From Chitinophagaceae bacterium (GTDB taxonomy: Bacteria > Bacteroidota > Bacteroidia > Chitinophagales > Chitinophagaceae), in NCBI GenBank assembly GCA_965246855.1, contig CBDFFP010000008.1, forward strand, positions 1,756-65,755: a stretch of 64,000 nucleotides of DNA, given 5' to 3'. Below are positions 3,433 through 59,751 of this stretch, piece after piece (position 1 is the first letter of the stretch; every line of letters starts with the position of its first letter). Under the pieces are notes generated by a model that saw nothing but the letters and a program-made list of their open reading frames with translations, searched no databases and was not told the origin of the DNA. The position numbers were made by a program, and so were the translations under genes.

Positions 3433-3467
3433 AAAAAAGGCCCTGCCATTGGTGGGGCCTTTTTTTG
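3433..3467 (+). terminator. rho-independent terminator
   Basis: aaaaaaggccc-tgccattggtg-gggcctttttttg: a GC stem flanked by an A-tract and a T-tract. Confidence 0.7.
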
Positions 3468-3539
3468 TGCGGCCATCCGGGTGCTACCCACTGCTGAAGA
3501 GAACCGGTTCGGCAAAAAGGGAAGCGCGCTCGGTTTATA

Positions 3540-3780
3540 GCCAAACCAGTTTGAATAGGAAGTGGGTCTGTTTACTGCGGAGGTAAACGGGTTTGGGTAA
3601 AAAGAGAGCCCGTTCGGTTGGCATCCAAACTTGTTTGGATATTAAGGGAGCCTGTTTGGGTAAAAAGCGAACGGGTTCGGCTGGCATCCAAACGGGTTTG
3701 GCTATGAAGTGGGAGGGGGTACTTGGGAAGTGGGCACCCCCACTTGTGGTGGGAACGACCCCACTTCAGAAGTGGGGGTA
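3540..3780. repeat. tandem array A: two clear 63-bp units (starting 3591 and 3654) plus degenerate flanks and aagtggg/ccccactt motifs
   Basis: gtttgggtaaaaagagagcccgttcggttggcatccaaac recurs as gtttgggtaaaaagcgaacgggttcggctggcatccaaac exactly 63 nt later. The hairpin ccccacttcagaagtgggg sits near 3760. Confidence 0.65.
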
Positions 3781-4068
3781 ATGGGAAAATGTAGTGTTAA
3801 AATAGGTGTGTTTGGAGGAAAAGTGGGAAATGATTATTTTTATAAGAGAAGGCTTGGAGGACTTTTGGGCTAACGCAGAGGGCTTTATGCAGGTTGAGAA
3901 TTAGCATTACGTCTGCCCGAGCCGCTGGTGATTGAAAATATTTTGATGAAGTTAAGTACTAATAATCAGCGATGTTTGTCCAGTCCGAACCAATGGAAGG
4001 TTTTGCAATTTGCTGAAGTTTAGTTTGTCAAGCCCAACTTGCATAAAACCCCATGTTAGCAGCAGGAT

Positions 4069-5001: not shown

Positions 5002-5326
5002 ATTTAGATATTTGTAATAATGTTTCTAGTAATAATTATTTCCCATTTAAGTTAGGGGATTTCAAAGTAGATTTGTCTTGCTGCTAATATTCTGTTTGCC
5101 GCAATTGGAGTAGCGGCAATCCGTCCATAGTCCGCAACCGCGTTTCGGCAATCATCCCAATACGGGTGTATTGCCGCTATTGAAGGTTTTTTCAGGGTTG
5201 CGCATTGCAAAACGCGCCGCAAAATACGAGCGCTCTTCCATATTTCAAAACCCCGCCCAACTTCCCAACCATTTCTCCCGTCTTTTCCTAAACTTATACT
5301 TTCGCAGCCTTTTCAGCAAACGACCT

Positions 5327-6724
5327 ATGCGCCTTCTCTCCTTTCTCCTCTTCTTGACCGCCACTTCTGCAAGCGCCCAACGCTTCACCCTTACCAACTC
5401 CCTTCGCACGGGCGCTTATGGCGCAGCCGCCTGGGGCGACTATGATGGCGATGGCCGGAAAGACCTCGCCTATGGCGCGCAGACGGCGCAAGCCGGCCTG
5501 TCCGATTTCCTTCACATCTACCACAACACAACCGCCGGTATGGTGCTGCTTACGCCAGCATTGCCGTACATGTCTAACCCTTCCATGACGTGGGCCGACC
5601 TGAACAACGACGGCAAAGACGAGTTGATTATCACCGGTATGGGAAGCACGGGCGGAGGCGCAACAACGGTTTATACCTACGATGGCGTAGGCGCGCTGGT
5701 GGAGATGACCAGCGTGCAGATTCCCGGCTTTTCCGCAGGCAGCGTAGCGGCAGTCGACTACAACAACGACGGCTGGAAAGACATCGCGATGATGGGCTTC
5801 GATAGCAGCAGCCAAGTCAATGCTCTTATCCTCAAAGGCGGCGCGGGCCTTTCCTTTACGCCCATTCGCACCCCCGTCGTTGGCGCGCACTTCGGCGAGA
5901 TGAAATGGGGCGATTTCAACAACGATGGCCTCGCCGATTTGCTGGTAAATGGTTATGAAGCAAACACGCCGCTGTCGCGCACCCGGATTTACCAAAACAT
6001 GGGTGCTGATTCTTTCCAGATGCTGTCCACCACTTATCGCGGCTTGTCCGGCACGGTGGACTGGCTGGATTATGATGGCGATGGAAAACCCGACTTCCTC
6101 ACAACAGGTACGGATACTTCCGGCACAAATTCTCTTACGGATTTGTACCACAATGATGGCAATGGCATTTTCAGTCGTGTAACCACCAATCTGCCGGATT
6201 TTGGCGAGCCTTCGGCAGTAGCGATTGCAGATTTTAACCAGGATGGCAAGCCTGATGTTGCCCTTGGCGGCGGCACAGCGTTTAGCAACACCTATTCCGC
6301 CATTGCCTACGGAACCGGCACAGCAACTTTTCTGCTGGATACCATCTACCAGGGAGATGTTCAGAATTGCATTGCCGAAGCCGCCGACTTTGACGGAGAC
6401 AGCTACCCCGACCTGCTTTTTGGAAGCAATCTGCTGCGCAACCGGGGCAGCGCCGCAGCCGTGAAAAATATTTCTGCGCCTGTAGCCAATGCCTGTCTGT
6501 CGCCCAATCCGGTAGCGGAGGACGCAGTGCTTCAGTGGAAAAGTCCGGTAAGCGGAAAAGCAATGCTCACGCTGCACGACGCTACCGGCAGAATGATCTG
6601 GCAACGGCAGGTAAAAACAGAGGTTGGAGAAAATCAGCTTCCAGTTTCCTTTAAGGATGTAGCACCGGGAATCTACTTTTTACGCGTCGGCAACAGCGAG
6701 GCATTGCGGGTGGAAAAGCGTTAA
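5327..6724 (+). CDS. FG-GAP/VCBS repeat protein with a T9SS (Por) C-terminal sorting domain
   Basis: Signal peptide MRLLSFLLFLTATSASAQ. Repeated D.(D/N)GDG..D motifs (WGDYDGDGRKDL, DLNNDGKDEL, DYNNDGWKDI, DFNNDGLADL, DYDGDGKPDF, DFNQDGKPDV, DFDGDSYPDL). C-terminus: LSPNPVAEDAVLQW...GIYFLRVGNSEALRVEKR. Confidence 0.8.
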   Translation: MRLLSFLLFLTATSASAQRFTLTNSLRTGAYGAAAWGDYDGDGRKDLAYGAQTAQAGLSDFLHIYHNTTAGMVLLTPALPYMSNPSMTWADLNNDGKDELIITGMGSTGGGATTVYTYDGVGALVEMTSVQIPGFSAGSVAAVDYNNDGWKDIAMMGFDSSSQVNALILKGGAGLSFTPIRTPVVGAHFGEMKWGDFNNDGLADLLVNGYEANTPLSRTRIYQNMGADSFQMLSTTYRGLSGTVDWLDYDGDGKPDFLTTGTDTSGTNSLTDLYHNDGNGIFSRVTTNLPDFGEPSAVAIADFNQDGKPDVALGGGTAFSNTYSAIAYGTGTATFLLDTIYQGDVQNCIAEAADFDGDSYPDLLFGSNLLRNRGSAAAVKNISAPVANACLSPNPVAEDAVLQWKSPVSGKAMLTLHDATGRMIWQRQVKTEVGENQLPVSFKDVAPGIYFLRVGNSEALRVEKR

Positions 6725-6796: not shown

Positions 6797-7348
6797 TTAA
6801 AATTTCACTGGATTTTCCCGCAACAAGGGCTGCACCAAATCCTTGTCCGAAACAATTGCTTCCCGCACGTCCATCTTCCAATCAATGTTCAGCGCCGGGT
6901 CGTCGAAGCGGATGCCGCCTTCGCTCATTTTGTGATACACGTTGTCACATTTATACAGCACCGAAGCCGTTTCGGATAGCACCGTATAGCCATGCGCAAA
7001 GCCGCGCGGAACCAGAATTTGCAGCTTGTTTTCGGCACTTAGTTCTGCACCAAACCAGCGGCCATAAGTAGGGCTGCCGTCGCGCAAATCCACCACTACA
7101 TCCCAGACAACGCCTTCAAATACCCGGAGCAATTTAGCCTGTGCATACGGTGGCTTCTGGAAATGCAATCCACGCAAAACATTCCGCGCCGAGCGCGCTT
7201 CGTTGTCCTGAATAAACGGCGCAGTATGGCCGGTGGCCTCCTGAAAAACCTTCTCGTTGAAGCTCTCAAAAAAATAGCCCCGGTCGTCGTGAAAAACGCG
7301 CGGCTCCAAAAGCAGCAGTCCCTCTATGGGCGTTGGAATAACCTTCAT
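6797..7348 (-). CDS. rfbC: dTDP-4-dehydrorhamnose 3,5-epimerase
   Basis: MKVIPTPIEGLLLLEPRVFHDDRGYFFESFN...LRGLHFQKPPYAQAKLLRV...GVVWDVVVDLR is the canonical RmlC cupin signature. Confidence 0.9.
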   Translation of the reverse strand: MKVIPTPIEGLLLLEPRVFHDDRGYFFESFNEKVFQEATGHTAPFIQDNEARSARNVLRGLHFQKPPYAQAKLLRVFEGVVWDVVVDLRDGSPTYGRWFGAELSAENKLQILVPRGFAHGYTVLSETASVLYKCDNVYHKMSEGGIRFDDPALNIDWKMDVREAIVSDKDLVQPLLRENPVKF

Positions 7349-7356
7349 TTTCTTTC

Positions 7357-8499
7357 CTATTTCTGGGCCAGTTGCTGAATGGTTTCGTTTACGGCAGTAG
7401 CGATGTAATCCACTTCTTCCGCCGTCAATTCGCTGTGCATCGGCAGGGAAATCACGCAGGTGTTGAGGAAGTCGGTTACCGGAAGGTGTGCTGCGTCGCC
7501 CCCAAATTCCCGGAGCATATTCTGCTTATGGCAAGGCACGGGATAGTAAATCATGTTAGGAATGCCGCGTTCCGTCAACGCCGCTGAAACCGCATCTCTG
7601 TCTACGTCTACAAGCTTCAGGGTGTATTGGTGGAAAACATGTGTGGAGTAGGGGGCGCGAAACGGCGTTTCGATGTGCATGTTGGGTGCGAAAGCAGCGT
7701 CGTAGGCATCGGCGGCGCGACGACGGGCGTCGTTATATCCATCAAGCAAAGGCAACTTGATGCGCAGCACGGCAGCCTGTATGGAATCCAAGCGGCTGTT
7801 GCATCCCACCATCTCATGATAGTAGCGCACTTTTTGTCCGTGATTGGCAATCATGCGCAGCTTCTCCGCCAGCGCGTCGTTGTTGGTGAACATCGCGCCG
7901 CCGTCGCCATAGCAACCAAGGTTTTTGGACGGGAAAAAGGACGTGCAGCCAATGGTTCCCATCGCGCCGGTTCTCGCCTTGCGGCCATCCGGAAAGGTGT
8001 ATTCTGCGCCAATAGCCTGCGCGTTGTCTTCTATTACCGGAAGATTGTGTTCCGCAGCAAGCGCCAGCAAAGGCGCCATGTCCACGCTTTGGCCGTAGAG
8101 ATGCACCGGCATAATGGCTTTCGTGCGCGGCGTAATCGCCTTCCGGACGCTCTCTATGTCCATTGTAAAGGTCTTCTCATCCACTTCCACAAACACCGGC
8201 TTCAGGCGCAGCAGGGCCACTACTTCCACCGTGGCGATATAAGTAAAGGAAGGCGTAATCACCTCGTCGCCCGGTTGAAGGCCAAGGGCCATAAGCGCAA
8301 TCTGAAGCGCATCCGTTCCGTTGGCGCAGGGAATCACGTGCTTCACGCCGAGGTAGTCGGCCAGTTCCTTTCCAAAAACGCCCACGTCCGGCCCGTTGAT
8401 AAAAGCTGTGTTGTCTATCACGTTCTGGATGGCGGCGTCCACCTCTTCTTTGATGTGCAGGTATTGGCGACGGAGGTCCACCATCTGGAGTTTGTGCAT
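7357..8499 (-). CDS. DegT/DnrJ/EryC1/StrS family PLP-dependent sugar aminotransferase
   Basis: FINGPDVGVFGKELADYLGVKHVIPCANGTDALQIALMALGL and FFPSKNLGCYGDGGAM (catalytic Lys region). It lies 8 nt upstream of rfbC on the same strand. Confidence 0.9.
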   Translation of the reverse strand: MHKLQMVDLRRQYLHIKEEVDAAIQNVIDNTAFINGPDVGVFGKELADYLGVKHVIPCANGTDALQIALMALGLQPGDEVITPSFTYIATVEVVALLRLKPVFVEVDEKTFTMDIESVRKAITPRTKAIMPVHLYGQSVDMAPLLALAAEHNLPVIEDNAQAIGAEYTFPDGRKARTGAMGTIGCTSFFPSKNLGCYGDGGAMFTNNDALAEKLRMIANHGQKVRYYHEMVGCNSRLDSIQAAVLRIKLPLLDGYNDARRRAADAYDAAFAPNMHIETPFRAPYSTHVFHQYTLKLVDVDRDAVSAALTERGIPNMIYYPVPCHKQNMLREFGGDAAHLPVTDFLNTCVISLPMHSELTAEEVDYIATAVNETIQQLAQK

Positions 8500-11475: not shown

Positions 11476-11701
11476 GTCCCCGAAACCGGGGATGGTGCGA
11501 GTAGTCGGTTTTGTGACGTCCCCGATTTCAGGGATAGCGCAAGTAATCGGTTTTGCGGCACCCCCGATTTCAGGGACGCCTAAAATTTCAGAATTTCCTT
11601 TATCCCCAAAATCGGGGATGCCTAAAATTTCAGAACTTCCTTTATCCCCCAAACCGGGGATGCCTAAAGTTCCAGAACTTTAGGCATCCCCGGTTTGGGG
11701 G
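11476..11701. repeat. tandem array B: about five 42-bp units ending in a 27-bp perfect inverted repeat (11646-11672 / 11675-11701)
   Basis: ccccgatttcaggga recurs 42 nt apart. ggatgcctaaaatttcagaa(t/c)ttcctttatcccc also recurs 42 nt apart. The terminal hairpin is cccccaaaccggggatgcctaaagttc-ca-gaactttaggcatccccggtttggggg. Confidence 0.8.
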
Positions 11702-11758
11702 AGGGTTATAATTTAAATATAGCCAGCAGTCCGCGTTTTCCGGGGAAGGCGCTCTCCT

Positions 11759-12865
11759 TTAGAAATTCAAGTCTTCCGGCTCTCCGGCCAGCCGCCGGCC
11801 CTGAAGGATATCCGCCCGAAACCGGTTTGCTCTGTTTGTCATGGTCTCTACTATGTCTTTGGGTACGGGTGCTAATCCAAGATTGTGGTTGAGCAGATAT
11901 TCCTCGTAAGCTATGGGCAGGTGTTCGGCAATCATCCGCAGCCGGTAAAGCTGCTCGGTATTGAGGATGGCTTCTCGAAAGTCGTAATGGCCTTCCATGG
12001 GAATCATCTCGTCGGCTTCCAACAGGCAGGAAATAGCCGTCATGAGCTGCTCGTCCATTTCCCCGTGCCGGTTCTGGTGACTGGCTGCCTCGTAAAACCT
12101 TCGGGTGGGGGCATCTTCAAAAGTGGTTACGAAGTATTTCAGGTGTTCTTCGTCGTATGGCAACGGGGGCCGTTGGTCGCTGTTGCGCTCGTGTTCGGCC
12201 CATTCTTCGGCATGTTCTGCCCGTTGCTTGTCGTAGGCCAGTTGCAGGTAGAAATCTTCCTTTGGCCCCCGGACGTCGGGCAGGGTCATCAGCACCCCTG
12301 CGCCGGTGCGGCCATTGTGGAAGTCATACCATTCCGGGAAGTTGCGGTTGGCATCATCCGTGGCGTAGGCTTCTTTGAGGTCTTCATAGTCCTGCCAGTT
12401 GTGGAGGAACCAGCGCCCCTCATCGGGTTCTACATAGGCGTTGTTGCTCAGCAGGTATTGCCGGTAGAGTTCCACCTCGTGTTCCGCAATGGGTTCCAGA
12501 AAAGGGCAGCGCAGGATGTCGTTTTCCCAACGGAGAAAGTCCTCGCAAATCTCCACGCCCTCATAGGTTTCCTTTTCCGCGCGCCAGAGGCATTGCGCGT
12601 CGAAAAGCTTTTTTTGCAGGATGCATTTCAGGTGTACTGCTGCGGCTTCAATCCACTGCGTTTCGGCTTTTTCGTTTTGTTCCACATTCCACTTCCCGTT
12701 GTCCAGCCACATCTTCTTTCGCTGGGCATAAAAAGGGATAAAGGAATCGACGGAATAGGAAGCAAAGCGTTCAAAATAGGCTTGGAAATGCGGCTCGGTG
12801 CGCAGTTCGTGTTCTATCTGCTCTTGGGTGATTTTTGGGTTCTCTTCGTTTGTTTCTTCAGACAT
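11759..12865 (-). CDS. hypothetical acidic Trp-rich cytoplasmic protein, paralog 1 of a tandem pair
   Basis: Start at MSEETNEENPK (ATG ending at 12865). Shares long identical blocks with the next gene (NEKAETQW, QKKLFDAQCLWRAE, NFPEWYDFHNGRTGAGVLM, IAEHLP.AYEEYLLN, GRRLAGEPEDLNF). Confidence 0.7.
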   Translation of the reverse strand: MSEETNEENPKITQEQIEHELRTEPHFQAYFERFASYSVDSFIPFYAQRKKMWLDNGKWNVEQNEKAETQWIEAAAVHLKCILQKKLFDAQCLWRAEKETYEGVEICEDFLRWENDILRCPFLEPIAEHEVELYRQYLLSNNAYVEPDEGRWFLHNWQDYEDLKEAYATDDANRNFPEWYDFHNGRTGAGVLMTLPDVRGPKEDFYLQLAYDKQRAEHAEEWAEHERNSDQRPPLPYDEEHLKYFVTTFEDAPTRRFYEAASHQNRHGEMDEQLMTAISCLLEADEMIPMEGHYDFREAILNTEQLYRLRMIAEHLPIAYEEYLLNHNLGLAPVPKDIVETMTNRANRFRADILQGRRLAGEPEDLNF

Positions 12866-12935
12866 AAGAAGGGATGTTTTAAGAAAGGTTGAAAATACAA
12901 AACGCGCTGCGGACAAAAAAGAAGGGCTGCCTTCT

Positions 12936-14072
12936 TTAGAAATTCAAATCTTCCGGCTCTCCGGCCAGGCGCCGGCCTGTTAGAATGCGATTATAAGGGG
13001 TTTGGAAAAGCCGGGCATAAAATTCCACCCGCTCTTTATCAACACTGTGCAGGCCGAGGCTTTGGTTCAGGAGGTATTCTTCGTAGGCCAGCGGCAGGTG
13101 TTCGGCAATCTTGCGCAGCCGGTAGCGGTGTTCGGCTTCCCGCAGGGCGTCGCGGAAATCGGCGTGCTTCTCCGTGGGTATCGGCTCGTCGGCATCCAGC
13201 AAAAGCCGAATAATTCCTTCCAGGTTGCTCCGGTCTTCGCTGTTGCGATGGTTGTAGGTAAAGCCCTCGTACAAGGCCCGCGTGCGCGCGTCCTCAAAGG
13301 TGATTACGAAGTGGCGAATTTGTTTTTGGTCGTAGGAATTTATCTCGGGGCGTTTATCCCTTGTGCGTTCCCATTCCGCAAAGTGGGCATCGTCTGCTGG
13401 CCGCTCCAAGGTGTCGTAAGCCAGTTTTATGTAGAAGTCTTCTTTCTCGCCCCGGAGGTCGGGCAGGGCCATAAGCACGCCTGCGCCGGTGCGGCCATTA
13501 TGGAAGTCGTACCACTCCGGGAAGTTGCCTTTGGCATTGTCCGTGTAGTGGGCGGCTTTTATTTCCCTGTAATCCTGCCAGTCCCCGTCTTGCCAGCCGT
13601 CCCAAAGGCGGGATTTCAGTTCGGGGTTGTTGCTTCGTAGATACTGTTGGTACAACCTCATTTCTTCCTCCGTTATCGGCTCCAGAAAAGGACAGTGCAG
13701 GATGTTCTCTCCCCACCGCTTAAAGTCAAAACAAATCTTCACGCCCTCATAAGTTGCCTGTTCGGCGCGCCAGAGGCATTGGGCATCAAAAAGTTTCTTT
13801 TGGAGGGTAAACTTCAGGTGCCTGGCGGCTTCTTCCATCCACTGCGTTTCGGCTTTTTCATTCTGGTCAATGGAGAATTGTCCCCAAGTCAGCCACCTCT
13901 TTTTCTGTCGCGCGTAATCGTGGATAAAATCGTCCACGGAATCTGCCTCAAAGGCTTCAAAATAGCTTTTGAAGCGCGGGTCGGTGCGCAGGAAGTCTTC
14001 TATCTGCTCCTTGGTGATGGGCGGCTCCTGCGGTTGGTCTTCAGTGTCGGGCGCTAAAGGTTCTTCGGGCAT
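12936..14072 (-). CDS. hypothetical acidic Trp-rich cytoplasmic protein, paralog 2 of a tandem pair
   Basis: 378 aa, collinear with 11759-12865. Has no signal peptide, no TM segment and no motif I recognise. Confidence 0.7.
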   Translation of the reverse strand: MPEEPLAPDTEDQPQEPPITKEQIEDFLRTDPRFKSYFEAFEADSVDDFIHDYARQKKRWLTWGQFSIDQNEKAETQWMEEAARHLKFTLQKKLFDAQCLWRAEQATYEGVKICFDFKRWGENILHCPFLEPITEEEMRLYQQYLRSNNPELKSRLWDGWQDGDWQDYREIKAAHYTDNAKGNFPEWYDFHNGRTGAGVLMALPDLRGEKEDFYIKLAYDTLERPADDAHFAEWERTRDKRPEINSYDQKQIRHFVITFEDARTRALYEGFTYNHRNSEDRSNLEGIIRLLLDADEPIPTEKHADFRDALREAEHRYRLRKIAEHLPLAYEEYLLNQSLGLHSVDKERVEFYARLFQTPYNRILTGRRLAGEPEDLNF

Positions 14073-18191: not shown

Positions 18192-19097
18192 ATGTCCATA
18201 CAGGTTCAGGGTCTGACCAAGATTTTTGGCGAACAGAAGGCGGTTCAGAACATCAGCTTTGAGGTGAAGCCTGGTGAGGTCGTTGGTTTTCTGGGCCCAA
18301 ACGGCGCGGGAAAATCCACCACCATGAAGATGATTACCGGCTACCTGCCGCCCACCGAAGGGCGCGCGTTGGTAAGTGGTTTTGACGCGCAAACTGCGCC
18401 GCAGGAAGTGCGCAAAAGGGTAGGCTATCTGCCTGAGGCCAACCCGCTTTATCTGGACATGTATGTGCGCGAATACCTGCAATTTTCCGGGGCCATTCAC
18501 GGGCTTGGAAAAGGCGTTGCCAAGCGCAGCGAGGAGCTGATAGAACGCACCGGACTGACGAAGGAAGCGCACAAAAAAATCGGGCAGCTTTCCAAAGGAT
18601 ACAAGCAGCGGGTGGGGCTGGCGCAGGCCCTGCTCCACGACCCGGAAGTCTTGATTCTGGACGAGCCGACTTCCGGCCTTGACCCGAACCAACTGGTCGA
18701 AATCCGCAACCTGATTACGCAAATCGGGAAGGAGAAAACGGTGTTGCTTTCCACCCACATCATGCAGGAAGTGCAGGCCCTTTGCAGCCGCGTGATTATC
18801 ATCAGCAACGGCCAGATAGCCGCCGACAATGCTATCGGCGAATTAGGAACGGACAAGCGAAAACCGGCACTGCTGCTGCGGCTGGAAAAAGACTTTTCGC
18901 AGAAAGAAATCAAGGGCATTCGCGGTTTGCAAAAAGCCACTGCCGTTTCGCCGAAAGTGTGGCGTTTGGAAGCGGACGATTTGGAAGTACTGCGCCGCAA
19001 TACAATGCAGTGGGCGCTGGATAACAACATCAGTATCGAAGCACTTCAGGCAGATACACAAAGCCTGGAAGAAGTGTTCAGAAGTTTGACGAAGTGA
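18192..19097 (+). CDS. gldA: ABC transporter ATP-binding protein (GldA-like, gliding-motility-associated type)
   Basis: Walker A GPNGAGKST, signature LSKGYKQRVGLAQAL, Walker B VLILDEPTSGLD. The gldA assignment rests only on overall resemblance and phylum context. Confidence 0.7.
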   Translation: MSIQVQGLTKIFGEQKAVQNISFEVKPGEVVGFLGPNGAGKSTTMKMITGYLPPTEGRALVSGFDAQTAPQEVRKRVGYLPEANPLYLDMYVREYLQFSGAIHGLGKGVAKRSEELIERTGLTKEAHKKIGQLSKGYKQRVGLAQALLHDPEVLILDEPTSGLDPNQLVEIRNLITQIGKEKTVLLSTHIMQEVQALCSRVIIISNGQIAADNAIGELGTDKRKPALLLRLEKDFSQKEIKGIRGLQKATAVSPKVWRLEADDLEVLRRNTMQWALDNNISIEALQADTQSLEEVFRSLTK

Positions 19098-19103
19098 GGC
19101 GTA

Positions 19104-19126
19104 GGAACGCGCCAGGAGGCGCGTTC
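19104..19126 (+). terminator. hairpin after the ABC ATPase gene (REP-like GTAGGAACGCGCC family)
   Basis: ggaacgcgcc-agga-ggcgcgttc. Confidence 0.5.
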
Positions 19127-19254
19127 TCGTTCAGCGGGTTCCTCTCGTCCAACAATCTTTATCATCGGAAAAGAACCTGTAGGGAATGTATTTCCGGGAA
19201 TCCAGGTTATACAGATCCCCGAAGAGGATGACAAAGGATTACCGGCAAAACAAA

Positions 19255-19282
19255 GAACGCCCCGCCAATCGGCGGGGCGTTC
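19255..19282 (-). terminator. rho-independent terminator of phoH
   Basis: gaacgccccgcc-aatc-ggcggggcgttc, with T-rich sequence on the minus-strand 3' side. Confidence 0.65.
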
Positions 19283-19308
19283 CTACAAAATCTTTTTTTG
19301 TCTTTTGT

Positions 19309-20385
19309 CTATAAACTTTTGTCTTCTTTCTCTTCCGGCTTCGGCGTCTCTTCTACCGGCGGCTGATTCATCGCGCCGGACTTGCGCAGCTCGCGGTATT
19401 CGCGCTCCTCGGCGCGGCTACTTACCTCGTCCCGCATCTGCTCTTTGTCGTAAGCACGGATAATGTGCTTCACGAGGCGGTGGCGCACCACGTCGCTCTC
19501 ATCCAGTTCAATGTGGGCGATGCCGTCGATGTGGCGCAGTATGCGCACTGCCTTCGCGAGACCTGACCGTTGGTTTTTAGGCAGGTCAATCTGCGTTACA
19601 TCGCCGGTAATAATGGCTTTCGCACTCGGCCCGATGCGTGTCAGAAACATCTTGATTTGCAGGTCGGTGGTGTTCTGTGCTTCGTCCAGAATAATGAACG
19701 AATTGTCCAGCGTGCGGCCCCGCATGTAGGCCAACGGCGCAATCTCAATGATGCGGTTGGTCATGTAATAATTCAGCTTGTCCGATGGCAGCATGTCGTC
19801 CAGCGCGTCATAAAGAGGGCGTAAGTACGGGTCGATTTTCTCCTTTAAATCGCCGGGCAGAAAGCCGAGGTTTTCACCTGCTTCCACCGCCGGGCGCGTA
19901 AGGATAATCTTGCGGACGCTTTTGTTCTTGAGGGCACGCACCGCAAGGGCAACGGCGGTGTAGGTTTTGCCCGTTCCGGCAGGGCCAATGGCGAAGATGA
20001 TGTCATTTTTATCCGCCGCTTCCGCCATGCTTTTTTGATTCTGTGTTTTGGCGCGAATCACTTTTCCATTCGGGCCAAAAACCAGCACGTCGCTTTGCAG
20101 CGCATCGGCTTGCAACGGCGATTCGCCTGCTTCCTCGTCGCCGAGAATCTGGGAGAAATAGTTTTCCGAAAGGTGACCGTTGCGCTCCAGGTATTTCACC
20201 ACTTGGCCAATGCGCATCTGCGCCTGATCGACTTCGCCTGACTGGCCAGTGATTTTTACCTGCGTGCCGCGCGACAGGATTTTAAGGCGCGGGAACCGCT
20301 TCTTGAGAATGTCGAACTTGCTGTTGTTTACCCCGAAAAATTCAATGGGGTTGATGTTTTCTAGGTTGATGATGGCTTCCGTCAA
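19309..20385 (-). CDS. phoH: PhoH family ATPase
   Basis: IFAIGPAGTGKTYTAVALAV, ILTRPAVEAGENLGFLPGDLKEKIDPYLRPLYDAL, AYMRGRTL, GDVTQIDLP. A likely TTG start at 20385 (MTEAIINLENI) is preferred to the track start at 20448. Confidence 0.9.
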   Translation of the reverse strand: MTEAIINLENINPIEFFGVNNSKFDILKKRFPRLKILSRGTQVKITGQSGEVDQAQMRIGQVVKYLERNGHLSENYFSQILGDEEAGESPLQADALQSDVLVFGPNGKVIRAKTQNQKSMAEAADKNDIIFAIGPAGTGKTYTAVALAVRALKNKSVRKIILTRPAVEAGENLGFLPGDLKEKIDPYLRPLYDALDDMLPSDKLNYYMTNRIIEIAPLAYMRGRTLDNSFIILDEAQNTTDLQIKMFLTRIGPSAKAIITGDVTQIDLPKNQRSGLAKAVRILRHIDGIAHIELDESDVVRHRLVKHIIRAYDKEQMRDEVSSRAEEREYRELRKSGAMNQPPVEETPKPEEKEDKSL

Positions 20386-20575
20386 AATTGTAGGATGCTT
20401 GAGATGGGGTTTAGAAGAAAATGCCGCCCGGGAAAGGCAGGGAAACAATGCCTTTGCGCCGCGCGGCTAAATGTATAAACGAAGGGCCGCTCCTAAAGTT
20501 TATTTTTGCCGGAAGCCGGAAATAAAAAGTGTTTCCATGCAGAGAAAGCAGCTTTCTCCCGGTTCAAAAATCTCC

Positions 20576-21391
20576 ATGAATTACTGGTACCAAAAAGTAG
20601 TGGTCGTTACCGGCGGAAGCTCCGGCATTGGTCTTGCGCTGGCGCAAAGTCTTCTGCAGAAAGGCGCGAGCGTGGCCGTTTGTGGTCGCAGCCGCGAAAA
20701 ACTGGTGACCGCGCTGGGCGAAAATTCCGGCGAATTGCTGCTGTTTTCTGCCGATGTTTCCGACGCGGCGCAGTGTGAGGCTTTCCTCCAAAAAACCGTG
20801 GAAAAATGGGGTGGGGTAGACGTGCTGATAAACAACGCGGGCATTTCCATGCGGGCACTTTTTGCCGATGTTTCTTTTGCTGTTTTGCGGGAGCTGATGG
20901 ACATCAATTTCTGGGGGGCGGTCTATTGTTCGCGGTTTGCGCTGCCGCACATCGTGGCGCGCAAAGGCGTGGTGGCGGGTATTTCCTCCATTGCCGGTTA
21001 TCGCGGACTCCCGGCGCGCGCGGGCTATAGTGCAAGCAAGGCGGCGCTTCAGGCTTTTCTGGAAACGCTGCGCACGGAATTGCTTTATACAGGCGCAACG
21101 GCACTGTGGATTAGTCCGGGATTTACGGCGTCCAACATCCGCAACGTGGCGCGCGCGGCCAACGGAACGGCGCAGGGCGAAACGCCGCTGGACGAAGCGA
21201 AACTGATGAGCGCGGAAGAATGCGCAGTGCATATTCTATCCGCCATTGAAAAGCGCAAGCGCAACACGGTGCTGACGTTTCAGGGGAAGCTGACGGTGTG
21301 GCTCAACAAGCTGTTTCCTTCTCTGACGGACAAGCTGGTGTATAATCATTTTGCCAAAGAGCCGGATTCGCCACTGAAAAAACCAAAATGA
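20576..21391 (+). CDS. SDR family oxidoreductase
   Basis: VVVVTGGSSGIGLALA (TGxxxGIG), NNAG, and YSASKAALQAF (YxxxK). Confidence 0.85.
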   Translation: MNYWYQKVVVVTGGSSGIGLALAQSLLQKGASVAVCGRSREKLVTALGENSGELLLFSADVSDAAQCEAFLQKTVEKWGGVDVLINNAGISMRALFADVSFAVLRELMDINFWGAVYCSRFALPHIVARKGVVAGISSIAGYRGLPARAGYSASKAALQAFLETLRTELLYTGATALWISPGFTASNIRNVARAANGTAQGETPLDEAKLMSAEECAVHILSAIEKRKRNTVLTFQGKLTVWLNKLFPSLTDKLVYNHFAKEPDSPLKKPK

Positions 21392-21576
21392 GGCCTCCCA
21401 ACGGGTTGGTCTAAACAACGTGTCTTTCGGGAAGGAAAATATCCGGCAGCCTGAAATCCTGTTTTGCTCCGCTCTTCCAAATACTTTTTCCAAGGGCTGG
21501 AAAAGGCACGTTTCATCCCTTTTGTCAACGCAGCTTGGAGAAAACCTCGCATCTATATGTGGGCCTTTTGCATAAG

Positions 21577-21838
21577 GTGGCGAGCCTTTTGCATCCCCAT
21601 GACGAAGGCTGTCATGAGGTAGCGAGAGTCTGTCATCATGTAGCGAGCCTTTCACTACCCTTCGGCAGCCTCTCACTACCCTTCGGCAGTCTCTCACTAC
21701 CCTTCGGCAGCCTCTCACTACCCTTCGGCAGCCTTTCACTACCCTTCGGCAGCCTTTCACTACCCTTCGGCAGCGGCTCACTACCCTTCGGCAGCGGCTC
21801 ACTACCCTTCGGCAGCGGCTCACTACCCTTCGGCAAAG
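21577..21838. repeat. tandem array C: nine near-identical 21-bp units (cactacccttcggcagcNNNt, starts 21653 to 21821) preceded by three degenerate in-phase units
   Basis: cactaccc starts at 21653, 21674, 21695, 21716, 21737, 21758, 21779, 21800 and 21821. Upstream, g(t/g)agcgag occurs at 21577, 21619 and 21640. Confidence 0.9.
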
Positions 21839-22130
21839 GCCTGAAAAAGCAGAGCGAAACAGCGAGAGAAGAGGCGCGCGCTGCGGAATTTTTTTGGAAG
21901 CTTCCTTAAGAACCTATGTGAAGAATGGGGCGACAAAGTTTTTTCGTTAAAGAAGAACCACACCTTTCACAACCTTTTATGTTGCGGATAGGCGCTAAAA
22001 ATTTCGTGCATCCCAACCAAAAGCGCATTCCAAACGTCTCTTTGAAGGCTAATAAGGAAAACTTTGTCCTTTTCGGATAAAGGTTTTAATTTCAAAGCCT
22101 GAACTACTCCTTTTTTCCCAAAATATTTTC

Positions 22131-24449
22131 ATGAAACACGCTTTACTTCTCGCTGCCTTTGCCGCCGGTTGCAGCTTTGCTTCTGCGCAAACGCTGAACC
22201 TGTATAAGCCCTCCGGAAATATTGCCGTAGAAAAAGGCGCGAAAACAATGTCGGCTCCTTTTGGAGGCGGCTTCAACGTGCCACAGTTTGCAATAGCCGA
22301 TCTGAACAACGATGGCAAGCCGGATCTTGTTACGTTTGAAGGTTATGGGCAAGTAGGTGTTAGTACTTTTATCAACCATGGCACATCCGGGAATCCCAGT
22401 TATGAATATGCTCCGCAATACGCATGGAGTTTTCCAATGGTGTTTAACTACCTGATTTTGCGGGATTATAACCGCGACGGCATCGCCGATTTGTTTTGCG
22501 CAGGTCTGGGCGGTTTCAGCGTTTATAAAGGCCGTTTTGCTAATAGCATGTTGCAATTCGATTACGTGAAAGACTTGCACTATGAATATATTTCTAATGC
22601 TAGTACTGGTGCGCTGGATACGGCCCCCGCATATGTAGGCAATAGTTGTATTCCTGGTATTGAAGATGTGGACGGCGATGGCGATTTGGATTTCCTATCT
22701 TTTTCCATCCTCGGTTCCCGTATTTTGTATTATGAAAACACGCAGGTAGAAGATGGTTTAAGTAAAGATACCATTCGGTTGCGGGTGCGCCACGGTTGCT
22801 GGGGAAATGCGCTTCAGTCCTACATCCGTGCCTACACGCTGGGGGTAGATTCCGCTAATTGCCCGCTGGCCTTCCGTCCGGCACCTGCTCCAACCCCCGA
22901 CAACGGGCAAGCGGGTTCTGTAGATTGGGAAGGCGGAAGAGCAGCTGCAAAAGGTGCCATGCACGGCTCCAATACACTCTGCTTTTTTGATGCAGATAAT
23001 GATGGTGACATCGACTTCCTGAATGGCAATGGCGCATTTAATGACATTCAGTTGCTGCGAAACGGACGGGCGCAATATGGCACCCGGAATGATACGATTG
23101 TTTCCCAGGATACGCTCTGGCAAAGCAATGGCATGGTGTACGAACAAAGCAGCTATCCGGCAGCTTTTCATATTGACTTCAACAACGACGGCAAGCAGGA
23201 CATTCTCATTGCGCCGCACGGCAGTGGACGTGACCGAAACCAGATTTGGTACTACCAAAACAATGGCACGCCGACCGCTCCACGCTTTGATTTTACCACC
23301 GATTCCCTGCTCTCCAATGATGTTATTGACGTAGGGTCAAACTCCCGGCCCCTGTTCTACGATTACAACAAAGACGGCAAACCGGACTTGCTGGTAGGCG
23401 GATTGGAAAAGCTCCAAAACGGACAACAGCTTTCGCGCCTACACTACTACGAGAATATAACAACTGTTGTGGGCCAACCACGATTTCAATTTAAGGCACT
23501 GGATTTGGTAAATCTCTCTGTTCTACCTGTCTATGCCACCGACCCTGCTGTGGGCGATGTGGACGGTGATGGGCTGGACGACCTCGTAATTGGCGGAAAA
23601 GACGGTAATCTGCTGTACTTCCGCAACACCGCTGCCACTGCCAACGTGCCGCCCGTCTGGATGCTACAACAAATGCCGATGACGCGTAACGGAACAGACG
23701 CGCTGAGTGTGTTTTCGAATGCATCACCCGCTTTTTACGACATCAATAAAGACGGCAAACCTGACTTGGTAATCGGTCAGACAAACGGTTCGCTGACAGC
23801 TTATCTGAACACTAATACTGTCCCCGGCAGCGTTTCCTTTGGCCCTGCCATAGACTCTTTTGGCGGCGCTATAATCCCCGCTTCCAGACCTTCGTTTGGA
23901 TATTCCCGCCCGTTCCTTGGAAAACTACAGGCAGGAAGCAACAAAGATTACCTCTTGATGGGTTGCAACGATGGTGTTTTATATGTATGGGACAGCATTG
24001 GTACCGGAAATACGACCCGGCAATTACTCAGGATTGCGGATACTTTTTCCCACATTGTCCTTCAACCCAACACCGCGCCTGCGGTAGCTGATGTGGATGG
24101 CGACGGAAAACTGGAAATGGTGATCGGAACCGACATTGGCGGACTGCAACTTTTCTGGACAGGCATGGGTCTGGATACAGATTCCTCCCTTCTGAGTCCC
24201 ACATACGTCAAGGTGTTTCCCAACCCGGCCAACGAAGATTTTGCCATTTTACGGCAGGGCGTGAGTGGCCGGAGAGAAACCACCGTTTCCGTCATGGACA
24301 TCACCGGCAGGCGGATATATCAGGAGCAATGGGGGGCAGGACAAGTGTCTGGAAGAGTCTCTACCCAAAGCTGGCCGGCGGGAATGTATATGCTTCAAAT
24401 AGCCGCTGCGGAAGGCGTGGAGACACAAAAAATCACCATTACCCATTAA
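22131..24449 (+). CDS. FG-GAP/VCBS repeat protein with a T9SS type A C-terminal sorting domain
   Basis: Signal peptide MKHALLLAAFAAGCSFASAQ. Many DxNxDGxxD repeats (DLNNDGKPDL, DVDGDGDLDF, DADNDGDIDF, DFNNDGKQDI, DYNKDGKPDL, DVDGDGLDDL, DINKDGKPDL, DVDGDGKLEM). C-terminus: VFPNPANEDFAIL...GMYMLQIAAAEGVETQKITITH. Confidence 0.8.
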   Translation: MKHALLLAAFAAGCSFASAQTLNLYKPSGNIAVEKGAKTMSAPFGGGFNVPQFAIADLNNDGKPDLVTFEGYGQVGVSTFINHGTSGNPSYEYAPQYAWSFPMVFNYLILRDYNRDGIADLFCAGLGGFSVYKGRFANSMLQFDYVKDLHYEYISNASTGALDTAPAYVGNSCIPGIEDVDGDGDLDFLSFSILGSRILYYENTQVEDGLSKDTIRLRVRHGCWGNALQSYIRAYTLGVDSANCPLAFRPAPAPTPDNGQAGSVDWEGGRAAAKGAMHGSNTLCFFDADNDGDIDFLNGNGAFNDIQLLRNGRAQYGTRNDTIVSQDTLWQSNGMVYEQSSYPAAFHIDFNNDGKQDILIAPHGSGRDRNQIWYYQNNGTPTAPRFDFTTDSLLSNDVIDVGSNSRPLFYDYNKDGKPDLLVGGLEKLQNGQQLSRLHYYENITTVVGQPRFQFKALDLVNLSVLPVYATDPAVGDVDGDGLDDLVIGGKDGNLLYFRNTAATANVPPVWMLQQMPMTRNGTDALSVFSNASPAFYDINKDGKPDLVIGQTNGSLTAYLNTNTVPGSVSFGPAIDSFGGAIIPASRPSFGYSRPFLGKLQAGSNKDYLLMGCNDGVLYVWDSIGTGNTTRQLLRIADTFSHIVLQPNTAPAVADVDGDGKLEMVIGTDIGGLQLFWTGMGLDTDSSLLSPTYVKVFPNPANEDFAILRQGVSGRRETTVSVMDITGRRIYQEQWGAGQVSGRVSTQSWPAGMYMLQIAAAEGVETQKITITH

Positions 24450-29682: not shown

Positions 29683-29734
29683 GAAATGCTTGTCTTTTCA
29701 TCCTTTTGAAGTGTTCTTATTAACAAAATGGTCC

Positions 29735-29935
29735 CGTCAAGCCTTCGGGAAGTCATTTCAACCCCTGCCACGGGCCGCCGAAGGTTTCGGGACGCCGTGG
29801 CCCAACGTCCATGAGCTGCTGGCGGCTTCGGGAAGTCGTGGCCCGACGTCCACGGGCCGCTGGAGGCTTCGGGGAGCCGTGGTCCAATGTCCACGAGCCG
29901 CTGGAGGCTTCGGGAAGCCATGGTATCAAATTCCA
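29735..29935. repeat. tandem array D: five units of 41-42 bp
   Basis: The anchor ttcggg occurs at 29744, 29786, 29827, 29868 and 29909. The unit resembles gtccacgggccgctggaggcttcgggaagccgtggcccaac. Confidence 0.75.
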
Positions 29936-31744: not shown

Positions 31745-31940
31745 GGTTACTAGTGATTAGTGGTGAGTGATAAATGATTAATGGAGCGTGGTAAAGGAGG
31801 AATTACGTTCCCCTTGCAATACTACAACCGACAACGAGGGCAGGACGAGTAATTGACGTGCAGAATTCAGCTATTCCACCATTGAGAAAGCGCATTTCCA
31901 CATTTTCCCATTCCCCACATTACCGCATTACTTTCGTCCC

Positions 31941-35069: not shown

Positions 35070-35450
35070 GATGGGAGAAATTGGGGGTGAATAAAAAAAG
35101 ATGGTTCGGTTTTCCTCCTTAAAATGATTGTGCCAGCTTTAGCGGTCGGGGTGAAAAATCTTTCCACAGAACAGAAGAATGATGTTCACAAAGAGTGATT
35201 GCCATCTACCCCTTCTCCGGGCGGGAGGGTTTTCGCGCTAGGGATAGGAGCGGATATCCTTTTTGCTGCGTGGGCCTTTTTGTGCGGTGGGGCAAAAAGA
35301 TAGCAGCGGATAGCCCGGGCCGAAGGCAGCGCCCGGATCATAGGTCATAAGCCATGGGTCATGCGACTCTGTGATAAATCCTAAAGAAGCTCCACAAAAA
35401 AGCGCCGCCCGAAAACAGACGACGCTTTGTTACAAAAGACTTTCTTTTAT

Positions 35451-59747: not shown

Positions 59748-59751
59748 GTTA

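Follow-up and report, generated by a model that had tools for sequence, protein, structure and literature searches.

The REP and BIME elements of enterobacteria and pseudomonads belong to a few sequence families that occur at hundreds of loci and are mobilized by RAYT transposases. Plasmid iterons and partition-site arrays are direct repeats of ~20-22 bp whose bound protein lies on one face of the helix. P. gingivalis carries minisatellites with units of 23 nt (BrickBuilt) and 41 nt (PgRS/MITE464), plus 22-nt repeats, and these are variable in copy number (PMC4596501). The Borg elements of Methanoperedens contain pervasive tandem repeats, for which replication slippage was proposed (PMC9879509). 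Finally, heptanucleotide repeats such as TAACTGA are found in cyanobacteria, Beggiatoaceae, and some Bacteroidetes (PMC4679880).

Here we describe seven strong tandem arrays (A to G) in 64 kb of DNA from the genome of an uncultured Chitinophagales bacterium; we refer to this whole stretch as the window. Tandem Repeats Finder (TRF), a repeat search, a lag scan, and a register print-out recovered all seven where a first-pass annotation had placed them. Its statement that they are all intergenic also holds; the ORF at 55113-56246 (−) that runs across array F is a spurious N-terminal extension of the lipoprotein gene. The arrays and the smaller 21-bp repeats of the window are as follows.

Array A, 3486-3779: ~14 units in a strict 21-bp register (at 3591-3716 there is also a 63-bp higher-order block); 10 units open with GTTYGG (register print-out), and the terminal three units (3717-3779) have turned into CCCCACTT...AAGTGGGG hairpins.
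Array B, 11478-11708: 42-bp units, each made of the palindrome CCCCGnnnnCGGGGA and a "filler" that is of either of two types; flanked by convergent genes, thymidine kinase (+) and an unknown gene (−).
Array C, 21583-21834: nine near-perfect 21-mers, AGC(CTY/GGC)TCACTACCCTTCGGC, at 21646-21834 (TRF: period 21, 9.0 copies, 95% identity), preceded in unchanged register by three degenerate units at 21583-21645; between an SDR gene at 20471-21391 (+) and an FG-GAP/T9SS gene at 22131-24449 (+).
Array D, 29727-29931: four units plus a degenerate one, each strictly 41 bp and forming a GC-rich imperfect hairpin, CCACGG...GGCTTCGGGAAGCC...CCGTGG; between convergent genes, cation efflux (+) and RNase H (−).
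Array E, 42387-42575: nine 21-bp units in 63-bp blocks (six are CTGCCC-N7-GGGCAG hairpins, two are A-tract units, CTGCCCGACGACAAAAAAG, and the terminal one is degenerate).
Array F, 55849-56037: nine diverged, AT-rich 21-bp units in 42-bp blocks; flanked by two divergent genes, one for a lipoprotein (−) and one for an XRE-type HTH protein at 56106-56477 (+; HTH_26 match).
Array G, 61762-61971: ten 21-bp units, GGTTGGRYCCAACGGCGCAGT; flanked by two divergent genes, one for a Na+/H+ exchanger (−) and one that is gyrA/parC-like (+) (Pfam matches).
Repeat upstream of dps, 46960-47025: three 21-bp units, of which units 1 and 3 carry GGTACAATGATAAAAATA.
Two-copy direct repeat, 31754-31795: 21 bp, 80% identity, in a promoter region.
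Two-copy direct repeat, 54949-54987: 21 bp, 84% identity, upstream of a TonB-dependent receptor gene.

The base period is 21 bp in five of the seven arrays (A, C, E, F, and G). Higher-order blocks of 63 bp occur in A and E (by one listing also in G), and blocks of 42 bp occur in F. B has a genuine 42-bp period, and the register print-out shows no division of its unit into 21-bp parts. So, the earlier claim that every period is 21 bp or a multiple of it stands for six arrays, whose base is 21 or 42 bp, but not for D, which keeps strictly to 41 bp. As first reported, the two GGTACAATGATAAAAATA boxes upstream of dps (47223-47699; Ferritin/Dps Pfam match) are 42 bp apart (46960 and 47002), but the 21-bp units there are probably an ordinary regulator site and not a minisatellite. 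The arrays occupy ~2.5% of the window, or roughly a fifth of its intergenic DNA, and the genes that flank them are chromosomal housekeeping genes (as judged from Pfam).

What the arrays do not share is sequence. An all-against-all comparison of the intergenic regions of the window found no cross-matches above chance among the arrays or their flanks, and no hidden similarity among the units of A to G was found in any rotation or on either strand. Each unit is restricted to its own array within the 64 kb, and the GC content of the arrays spans 35% to 66%; the first-pass description of the arrays as unrelated in sequence and base composition is thus borne out. Beyond the window, an exact search of genome contigs with the array C unit returned chance single matches only, and when 185,579 genomes were searched for hairpins like those of E at a spacing of 21 bp, there were scattered chance matches but no related arrays.

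The arrays differ from each of the described systems. Like REP and BIME elements, many of them are extragenic imperfect palindromes of ~20-40 bp that are clustered in tandem, frequently where two genes converge, and the orientation of some copies alternates, as it does here where arrays B and G end. However, REP/BIME-like palindromes are present in A, B, E, and G, and structurally in D, but not in C or F, and here each unit belongs to one array at one locus, in a window without a RAYT gene. The P. gingivalis minisatellites come from the same phylum and are likewise strictly intergenic, direct, and free of spacers, with units near two or four helical turns (PMC4596501). Those repeats, however, lie inside MITEs with IS5-like inverted ends, a leader, and a tail, none of which we find here, and one unit recurs ~19 times per genome, with periods of 22, 23, or 41, whereas the units here are locus-specific (PMC4596501). 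The Borg repeats are similar in that there are many arrays with locus-unique units, which are independent and recent, absent in relatives, and partly intergenic (PMC9879509). They differ in being perfect, A-rich, and about half inside genes, whereas ours range from young to old, are often palindromic, and are all intergenic (PMC9879509). Also, no single unit length is shared by the Borg repeats, and only 14-38% of those in intergenic DNA are a multiple of three, in contrast to the single register here (PMC9879509), and the share of intergenic DNA taken up by the arrays exceeds that reported for Borgs.

The heptanucleotide repeats are another case of a preferred period across different intergenic units (PMC4679880), but they are simple-sequence repeats, often near start codons, and neither a lag scan nor a period analysis found a 7-bp substructure within our 21-mers. 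Heptamer arrays are common in the Bacteroidota comparison loci, and three small ones lie in the window (19296-19325, 59736-59759, and 60001-60027). We considered a link between them and the 21-bp arrays and rejected it: the excess of multiples of seven in the comparison set consists of true heptamers and degenerate 14-mers. Iterons and partition-site arrays were rejected as well, as they are single arrays beside plasmid rep or par genes, whereas the seven arrays here are unrelated to each other and lie among housekeeping genes, with no replication-initiator or partition genes adjacent (Pfam). Nor are the arrays CRISPRs: the units abut without spacers, the "fillers" of B are themselves repeated, and the window has no cas domains (Pfam). 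Repeats of the ToxI type, which belong to type III toxin-antitoxin systems, have units of ~36 nt. The units here are 21 nt, and the flanking genes encode no ToxN/AbiQ-type domain. In form, the arrays are minisatellites (candidate VNTRs), with spacer-free head-to-tail copies in strict register, variant blocks, and higher-order units.

The shared period is not a matter of chance. Of the 7 strong arrays here, 6 had a period of 21, 42, or 63 bp; in 4.7 Mb of comparison DNA from other loci, only 8 of the 61 strong arrays did (Fisher p = 1.7e-4). The window shows the kind of enrichment that the first-pass annotation had suggested looking for, and a period that is common to the arrays while their sequence is not is a real, non-random feature. 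Strong arrays are also ~8 times as dense as in the background (7 observed versus 0.83 expected per 64 kb, P(≥7) = 2.6e-5). In the TRF output for the window, 12 of 16 array clusters had a period of 21, 42, or 63 bp, and genuine 21-mers made up ~10.6% of the TRF arrays in each comparison set. With an identical criterion, 2.2 Mb from other Chitinophagales gave 0.29 arrays per 64 kb, as compared to 5 here. The preference for 21 bp does reappear sporadically within the order: locus L132 has ~17 units of 21 bp around the palindrome TTGATCAA, in 63-bp blocks, and locus L149 has two adjacent, unrelated 21-mer arrays. The 21-bp pattern is real, statistically unusual, and specific to the lineage, within a scope of 64 kb of one low-coverage metagenomic genome. 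Our full-text literature search found no earlier description of a genome-wide shared 21-bp repeat period, and the first-pass annotation had known of none.

We considered whether the arrays are artefacts of metagenome assembly, such as de Bruijn graph cycles at k=21 or repeats that were collapsed or expanded from the reads. The smallest k-mer size of assemblers is commonly 21, the read depth of the organism in run X1 is low (word depth about 3-9x), and Logan contigs break inside the near-perfect array C, whose count of identical units is beyond the reach of 31-mers. (Run X1 is the sole public run with this DNA at usable depth; run X2 has only traces of it.) Nevertheless, arrays A, E, and G are each spanned without a single difference by independent k=31 Logan contigs from run X1, and the one that covers E is 15.9 kb long. 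All of the words of array C, including every junction word, are present in the Logan unitigs of this run. Furthermore, graph cycles would not yield diverged units, higher-order blocks, or inverted copies. The artefact reading, about which the first-pass annotation had also warned, is largely refuted, and we give it almost no credence.

We give just as little credence to the idea that the arrays are heptad (7-residue) repeats of unannotated or decayed genes. It starts from the fact that 21 bp is seven codons, and arrays C, E, F, and G do have at least two open frames each. But stops interrupt every one of the six frames of A and B, and the 41-bp unit of D is not divisible by three, which rules out a coding tandem repeat for these three arrays; the ORF over F is the spurious one described above. 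In addition, the conserved positions of the arrays are contiguous and not spaced three apart, and the relatives have no gene at these sites. Palindromic units are open on both strands simply through symmetry, and spurious ORFs of 100-195 amino acids cross arrays C, D, E, and G. The earlier remark that most arrays are stop-free in several frames is true of five of the seven, with A and B closed in six, but the seven-codon idea that went with it fails.

We compared the orthologous spacers of arrays B, C, and D in four syntenic relatives and found no arrays there; the relatives' spacers are short. Relatives without the arrays include UBA1952, OH_PBB_261, OH_PBB_176, and PMG_148. The array C spacer is 739 bp here versus 150-230 bp in the relatives, where it holds one terminator hairpin, and the array D spacer is 291 bp here versus 92-127 bp in L030 and L032, where it holds a TTTCCGGAAA palindrome. 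Array B lies in a 326-bp spacer beside a two-gene insertion, in a gap that measures 120-170 bp in relatives; B is absent from L030-L032. As judged from these alignments, the arrays appear to be lineage-specific insertions that arose in place. The C unit is weakly similar to the orthologous spacers of three of the four relatives (p about 0.03-0.06), which would be a marginal hint of a local seed. Protein-anchored scans of genome and metagenome contigs found no relative above 81% amino-acid identity. For the F and G spacers, a mutS-anchored scan gave only distant phyla among the matches listed, and a SnoaL-anchored look-up for orthologous spacers led to loci without synteny.

That the arrays are insertions relative to the relatives would also fit common descent, in which a mobile element with a 21-bp minisatellite, comparable to BrickBuilt or PgRS in P. 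gingivalis, would have left decayed copies of itself behind as the arrays; their sequence similarity, but not their period, would then have been lost as each array evolved in concert and diverged from the others. Bacteroidota MITEs with internal tandem repeats of 23 and 41 nt do exist (PMC4596501), and unequal exchange can hold a period while the sequence drifts. However, the all-against-all comparison found only chance matches in place of shared flanks, inverted ends, or leader or tail segments, and no residual similarity of units or flanks, so we rejected a MITE-borne minisatellite of this type. Unit GC from 35% to 66% and the absence of a transposase from the window (Pfam) also argue against common descent, as would the resemblance of the C unit to the local ancestral spacer. 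Overall, we consider common descent to be quite improbable.

Within arrays, the copies record how they grew. The sub-variants of array C (CTT, CTC, and GGC) are grouped in blocks, with one unit being a TCTC variant, as expected from the recent stepwise expansion that the first-pass annotation had read from them. Together with the 42-bp and 63-bp higher-order blocks, they show that arrays grow by whole-unit steps. The identity between adjacent units goes from 0.95-1.0 (the nine near-perfect units of C) down to ~0.5 (A and F), with zero indels. The arrays thus form an age continuum, with the register preserved throughout.

Most of the array units are short palindromes, and some units were copied inverted, which gave rise to perfect hairpin arms of 27-34 nt within arrays or at their ends. 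At the end of array B, the last unit recurs in inverted orientation, with perfect arms of 28 nt (11645-11702), and array G has inverted unit copies at both ends (34-nt arms at 61763-61837 and 27-nt arms at 61910-61963). Long perfect hairpins (stems of 18 bp or more) are ~7 times enriched, with four in the 64 kb versus 0.57 in the background. Two perfect inverted repeats lie outside the arrays.

Perfect palindrome, 55027-55074: 48 bp (24+24 nt, no loop).
Perfect hairpin, 57006-57060: stem of 26 bp and loop of 3 nt, immediately upstream of mutS.

The palindrome at 55027-55074 is one of the four long perfect hairpins and belongs to a window-wide excess of locally generated repeats. The palindromic units, the inverted end copies of B and G, the hairpin enrichment, and the absence of the arrays from relatives had all escaped the first-pass annotation.

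Given these hairpins, the arrays might act at the RNA level, as 3' or 5' UTRs that contain multiple terminators, REP-like stabilizers, or processed small RNAs. Compared with shuffled sequence, folding is far stronger in arrays A, B, E, and G, with z from −7 to −16 (A, −7.1; B, −8.8 and −14; G, −13.7; E, about −15 to −16 on both strands). The minus strand of E reads as a hairpin followed by TGCTTTTTTG, which is terminator-like; a 28-bp stem ends B between convergent genes; and the corresponding sites of the relatives carry single terminator hairpins. On the other hand, there was no significant folding for D or F, or for C on the sense strand (C folds only on the strand that is not transcribed from the flanking genes), so palindromes are not universal among the arrays. 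F and G lie in divergent promoter regions. No Rfam family reached its gathering score on the arrays, where the only matches were sub-threshold ones to generic microRNA hairpin models. (The sole Rfam match in the window that passes the gathering score is a Flavo-1 RNA at 35230-35324.) Finally, a function in RNA leaves the common length of 21 nt without a reason. We therefore doubt strongly that this is the main explanation.

Another possibility is that the arrays are selected as phased protein-binding sites, to which an architectural or nucleoid protein, or several regulators, would bind every two turns on one face of the helix. The arrays would then be retained as titration sites or as the nuclei of a filament or an insulator. 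This would account for a register without indels in arrays whose units are only 45-55% identical (A and F) and for conserved short motifs at set positions: GTTYGG in A, and in F, GTCAT and AAAA ~9 bp apart, to which per-position conservation is confined. An XRE-type HTH gene starts 68 bp downstream of array F, spacings of 21 and 42 bp also occur upstream of dps, and the small 21-bp duplications are limited to promoter regions. However, the motif differs in every array, so a single sequence-specific protein cannot account for all of them, and seven different ones in 64 kb are implausible. Four or five of the arrays lie between the 3' ends of genes, where regulation is not expected, and the relatives have the same genes without the arrays. 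Nor does a wedge model of curvature give a common shape signal. Predicted curvature is in the top 5% for A and the top 1.5% for G, but B, C, E, and F rank unremarkably at the 11th to 54th percentile, and D (164 bp) is predicted to be nearly straight, although it is too short for ranking. Because only A and G stand out, we rejected strong intrinsic curvature (phased A-tracts) as a predicted common property, and the curvature that the first-pass annotation had proposed computing is not shared. Overall, selection for protein binding is rather unlikely.

A third possibility is that an enzyme sets the length: a lineage-specific nuclease, integrase, or transposase would nick two turns apart, fill-in would duplicate 21 bp, and repeated events would build the arrays, as in target-site duplication or the duplication of CRISPR repeats. 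This would account directly for a fixed length that is independent of sequence, the two-copy duplications in the window are also mostly 21 bp, and the density of arrays is specific to the lineage. But among all called genes of the window, Pfam and NCBIfam gave no transposase, RAYT, or cas gene and no other suggestive candidate for a generating enzyme, and we know of no enzyme that makes a 21-bp duplication. TRF found no 21-bp duplications inside genes, in frame or otherwise, in the ~55 kb of coding DNA in the window, which speaks against a mutation of the ruler type that acts without selectivity. Nor does a single ruler account for the periods of B (42 bp) and D (41 bp), and ordinary slippage already yields variant blocks and higher-order units. 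So, an enzymatic ruler seems very improbable. More generally, a sequence-independent ruler, whether a protein lattice with a 21-bp step or a two-turn nicking enzyme, that creates or protects copies of any intergenic sequence in 21-bp phase is rather unlikely. If true, it would be a chromatin-like or integrase-like process of a kind so far undescribed in bacteria.

The explanation that we tentatively prefer, while putting its chances a little below even, is that the arrays are minisatellites that were amplified in place by slippage and strand switching and were filtered by a constraint of two-turn phasing. Arrays would start from local palindromes, often terminator-like ones. Direct copies would expand through slipped-strand or unequal exchange, and inverted copies would arise through intramolecular strand switching, in a lineage where such events would be uncommonly frequent or uncommonly well tolerated. 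The shared 21-bp register would then be a filter on what amplifies or persists. No smaller integer number of base pairs than 21 completes whole turns of B-DNA (2 x 10.5), so every copy, with whatever binds to it or extrudes from it, would stay on one face, and the gain or loss of a unit would leave the flanking DNA unrotated. The arrays may have further roles as terminators, insulators, or protein landing pads. The 41-bp period of D and the 42-bp period of B, which has no 21-bp substructure, argue against this explanation. Also, periods of 42 and 63 bp are mostly higher-order blocks on a 21-bp base, from which they follow automatically, so they are not independent support for helical phasing, which leaves about five independent arrays as its basis. 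The first-pass proposal, in which a common mechanism generates or selects the arrays, is supported in part. The period is non-random and lineage-specific, but the arrays share no predicted curvature and the longer periods add no independent evidence.

Usually, bacterial minisatellites between genes are viewed one by one, as markers for typing, or as components of mobile elements. The genome described here appears to produce them wholesale, with a length rule that is independent of sequence. A practical caution is that the array regions break short-read assemblies and generate long spurious ORFs. If the rule is genome-wide, then this lineage would be a natural experiment on what sets the length of repeat units in bacteria (helical phasing, protein footprint, or enzyme reach), and it would bear on how hairpins and terminator-like structures are born from local sequence.

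Across the whole window, Tandem Repeats Finder (TRF) returned 34 rows, and all arrays scoring at least 100 were among those singled out by the first-pass annotation, which had described seven intergenic arrays of unrelated units with periods of 21 bp or its multiples. TRF, a repeat search, a lag scan and a print of each array in its register confirmed this observation with small corrections. In particular, the period of array D, previously given as 41-42 bp, is strictly 41 bp.

Tandem arrays A to G and smaller 21-bp direct repeats in the window
Array A, 3486-3779: 21-bp register with a 63-bp block at 3591-3716; between gene 3' ends; unit palindromes CCAAACnnGTTTGG and CCCCACTTnnnAAGTGGGG
Array B, 11478-11708: period 42; convergent genes; unit palindrome CCCCGnnnnCGGGGA
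Array C, 21583-21834: period 21, 9.0 copies at 95% plus three degenerate in-phase units upstream; tandem genes
Array D, 29727-29931: period 41; convergent genes; unit a GC-rich imperfect hairpin with 21-nt and 20-nt halves
Array E, 42387-42575: period 21 with 63-bp blocks; after a gene 3' end; unit CTGCCC-N7-GGGCAG
Array F, 55849-56037: period 21 with 42-bp blocks; divergent genes
Array G, 61762-61971: period 21; divergent genes; unit palindrome GGTTGGRYCCAACC
Smaller repeats: 31754-31795; 46960-47025 (upstream of dps); 54949-54987

In the repeat search, the start-to-start distances of units were exactly 21, 42 or 41 bp, with zero slips. When set in a 21-bp register, the arrays are in phase from end to end, despite unit identities of 45-55% in places. 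Among the 33 intergenic regions, a lag scan found such an array in nearly all of those longer than about 290 bp. The repeat upstream of dps comprises three 21-bp units, two of them with GGTACAATGATAAAAATA; its direct repeats are spaced by two and four turns, and the region resembles a binding site for a regulator, not a minisatellite.

The window's DNA is present in one public sequencing run (X1), with traces in another (X2). The Logan contigs of X1, which are assembled from 31-letter words and are independent of the window's own assembly, run through arrays A, E and G without a single difference. At array C, these contigs break up, as near-identical units would lead one to expect, and each of the resulting short unitigs matches the window exactly. 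So, the arrays are present in the reads, and their recovery in independent 31-mer contigs excludes an artefact of a k=21 graph. (The number of identical units in array C is beyond the reach of 31-mers, and the depth is only about 3-9x.)

To define a background, we used 3.13 Mb from relatives, other Chitinophagales and unrelated genomes and 1.57 Mb mostly from other Bacteroidota, and we considered an array to be strong if its score was at least 100 and its period at least 10. The period was 21, 42 or 63 for 6 of the 7 strong arrays in the window but for only 8 of 61 in the background (P = 1.7e-4, Fisher test). This test is conservative because two of the eight background matches came from a targeted search for hairpins spaced by 21 bp. 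The density is also unusual: from the background, 0.83 strong arrays are expected per 64 kb (P(>=7) = 2.6e-5), and under a stricter cutoff that demands at least 3 copies and at least 75% identity, the density is 5 per 64 kb for the window, as compared to 0.29 in 2.2 Mb of other Chitinophagales. Among all TRF clusters in the window, 12 of 16 have a period of 21, 42 or 63, while in each comparison set the share of genuine 21-mers among the arrays is about 10.6%. Multiples of 7 make up 35-37% of arrays in the Bacteroidota comparison loci, versus 16% in the other phyla that were sampled. This excess is due to true heptamer arrays and degenerate 14-mers, about a quarter of the Bacteroidota TRF arrays (examples of the heptamer type are at 2694-2760 of locus L031 and 18986-19292 of locus L112). 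Neither the lag scan nor a period analysis found a 7-bp substructure in the window's 21-mers.

As 21 bp is seven codons, the arrays had been suspected of coding potential. This fails: stop codons interrupt every one of the six frames in arrays A and B, the 41-bp period of array D is not divisible by three, and conserved unit positions run contiguously instead of lying three apart. Five long spurious ORFs (100-377 aa, on both strands) arise from the arrays, and an automatic annotator could call them as hypothetical proteins.

ORFs created by the arrays
21236-21823, minus strand
21535-21909, plus strand
42327-42632, minus strand
55113-56246, minus strand: 377 aa over array F, a false N-terminal extension (168 residues) of a lipoprotein whose true start is MKSVRLL...
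61617-61973, plus strand

The units are also unrelated to each other. Each is restricted to its own array within the window, and array GC content ranges from 35% (F) to 66% (G). When the unit consensuses were compared in all rotations and on both strands, the mean best match was 9.6/21, versus 9.9 for shuffled units. Comparisons between the intergenic regions gave chance matches only, with no common ends, leaders or tails. A common mobile ancestry is disfavoured by this lack of shared ends and of similarity between units.

The window carries ordinary chromosomal genes, namely phoH, SDR, thymidine kinase, RNase H, dps, mutS and gyrA/parC-like genes and those for FG-GAP and CHU_C proteins, which bear type IX secretion tails. 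The nearest genomes are the uncultured Chitinophagales UBA1952, OH_PBB_261, OH_PBB_176 and PMG_148 (70-81% amino-acid identity for the SDR), and no closer relative was found among the metagenome contigs or the protein collection searched. Between roughly 7 kb and 30 kb of the window, gene order is shared with these four. Array C lies in the spacer between the SDR and FG-GAP genes, which measures 739 bp in the window versus 150-230 bp in the relatives, where it contains one plain terminator hairpin. The convergent spacer of array D is 291 bp, versus 92-127 bp in relatives, in which it has a TTTCCGGAAA palindrome. Array B adjoins two inserted paralogous genes, and the corresponding gap in the relatives is 120-170 bp. 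(These tandem genes, at 11759-14072 on the minus strand, encode 385 and 378 aa, share 72-80% nucleotide identity, have no Pfam or NCBIfam match, and split thymidine kinase from a TolC-like gene that adjoins it in three syntenic relatives.) We found no 21-, 42- or 63-bp arrays in 67 kb from the four relatives. By this comparison at the sites of B, C and D, the arrays are lineage-specific insertions. The array C unit is weakly similar to the orthologous spacers in three of the four relatives (P ~ 0.03-0.06), always over TACCCTTCGGCAGCC, which hints, suggestively only, that it may have been seeded from local sequence.

Most units are short palindromes. For arrays A, B, E and G, folding on both strands is far stronger than in dinucleotide shuffles (z of −7 to −16); this holds for array C on the minus strand only, and it does not hold for arrays D and F. 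One hypothesis is that the arrays function as RNA; however, two or three of them do not fold on any transcribed strand, and they match no Rfam family. Inverted copies occur as well: at its end, array B carries its last unit again as a perfect inverted copy (28-nt arms separated by 2 nt), array G has inverted unit copies at both ends (arms of 34 and 27 nt), and array E has similar local inversions. Elsewhere in the window are a loopless perfect palindrome of 48 bp (55027-55074, on the downstream side of the lipoprotein gene), a 26-bp stem, also perfect, around a 3-nt loop (57006-57060, just upstream of mutS), and an inverted repeat with 41-nt arms that are 98% complementary (59869-59982). In E. 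coli, perfect palindromes of such length are unstable, and the first two suggest a different tolerance or a recent origin.

The earlier claim that array C expanded stepwise holds up, as units of the same variant sit in runs (CTT, CTC, TCTC, CTC, CTT, CTT, GGC, GGC, GGC); these runs mean recent single-unit duplications. The 63-bp blocks within A, E and G and the 42-bp blocks within F are in-register duplications of several units. Identity between adjacent units is 0.95-1.0 for the nine near-perfect units of C, about 0.8 for D and G, and about 0.5 for A and F, which implies that the process is old and still active. The register persists through heavy substitution without indels, and at the right end of array A, the unit gives way to a different hairpin that retains the register and has the GAAGTGGG core in common with it.

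What maintains the register? The earlier proposal that one constraint acts on all arrays is reasonable, yet it is unproven, and its intrinsic-curvature version fails. In a Bolshoy-Trifonov wedge calculation (indicative only), A (top 5% of 168-bp windows) and G (top 1.5%) alone stood out; B, C, E and F were unremarkable, and array D (164 bp, too short to rank) was nearly straight. A ruler enzyme could set the length, but the roughly 55 kb of coding DNA contains no 21-bp duplications, though these would be in frame, no candidate gene was found in the window, and B (42) and D (41) are incompatible with one ruler. Alternatively, a bound protein might fix the phase. In line with this, conservation is confined to short motifs at fixed positions, and array F precedes the gene of an XRE-type regulator by 68 bp, but the motif differs from array to array and the majority of them sit between the 3' ends of genes. 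We prefer the explanation, inferred from these patterns, that the arrays were amplified in place and that a filter for two full helical turns would retain the 21-bp register. (Twice 10.5 is 21, its first multiple that is a whole number.) Since the periods of 42 and 63 are higher-order blocks built from a 21-bp base, about five independent arrays carry this helical argument.

Several other features lie near or between the arrays. Array A adjoins a TIR-domain gene (4069-5001, minus strand) in a low-GC island (3400-5100, 43-47% versus ~54%). At 3921-3959, the unitigs of a 30-40-bp stretch reach X1 word depths of 14-59 (at most 108 as a bin mean) versus 2.8 around it, which indicates a short sequence common to something far more abundant in the sample. 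The first 2,000 nt have a GC content of 61.5% (window mean ~54%), and ORF 158-979, whose only match is an OB-fold anticodon-binding domain, contains a hairpin (237-329; 44-nt arms, 91% complementary, 5-nt loop). A Flavo-1 RNA (Rfam RF01705, 35230-35324; 48.5 bits versus a gathering score of 42), which has a 17-bp direct repeat of its own, sits in a 381-bp spacer without a 21-bp array. The spacer at 59748-60032 also lacks a 21-bp array and has many small repeats: the inverted repeat at 59869-59982, heptamer runs (CATGGGT x3.4 at 59736-59759 and TCCATTA x3.9 at 60001-60027) and hairpin motifs (GTCATTCCGAGCG...CGAGGAATC and GTCATTGCGAG...CGAAGCAAC), which resemble short palindromic elements of many Bacteroidota and cyanobacterial genomes. 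Finally, a HipA-like kinase gene and the DUF3037 gene that comes after it (48730-49891, 20-bp overlap) are a possible toxin-antitoxin-like or signalling pair.

Parallels exist. Of two Chitinophagales metagenome contigs, L132 has, in the spacer between two convergent genes (7222-7594), about 17 21-bp units around TTGATCAA that also form 63-bp blocks, and in L149 an FG-GAP gene is followed by a pair of neighbouring 21-mer arrays unrelated to each other (5181-5363). P. gingivalis has tandem repeats of 22, 23 and 41 nt, the latter two inside MITEs (PMC4596501). Borg elements resemble the window in having many locus-unique repeats, but these lack a common length (PMC9879509). In a contig from an uncultured Prevotellaceae (L328, 3695-16991), five strong arrays fall within 23 kb and their periods are 27, 39, 54, 18 and 71, so a high array density is possible without a shared period. 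Searches of the full-text literature, for which coverage is incomplete, turned up no account of unrelated arrays that keep one 21-bp register, and this silence is weak evidence of novelty. The arrays belong with bacterial intergenic minisatellites and palindromic repeat clusters, which are of a known kind; what is notable here is their density, their local uniqueness and their common 21-bp register. These conclusions are drawn from a single 64-kb sample of a low-coverage metagenomic genome. Perfect stems of at least 18 bp are in excess as well (4 per 64 kb in the window, versus 0.57 in other Chitinophagales and 0.49 elsewhere), and together with the direct arrays, they point to a lineage that is rich in locally made direct and inverted repeats.
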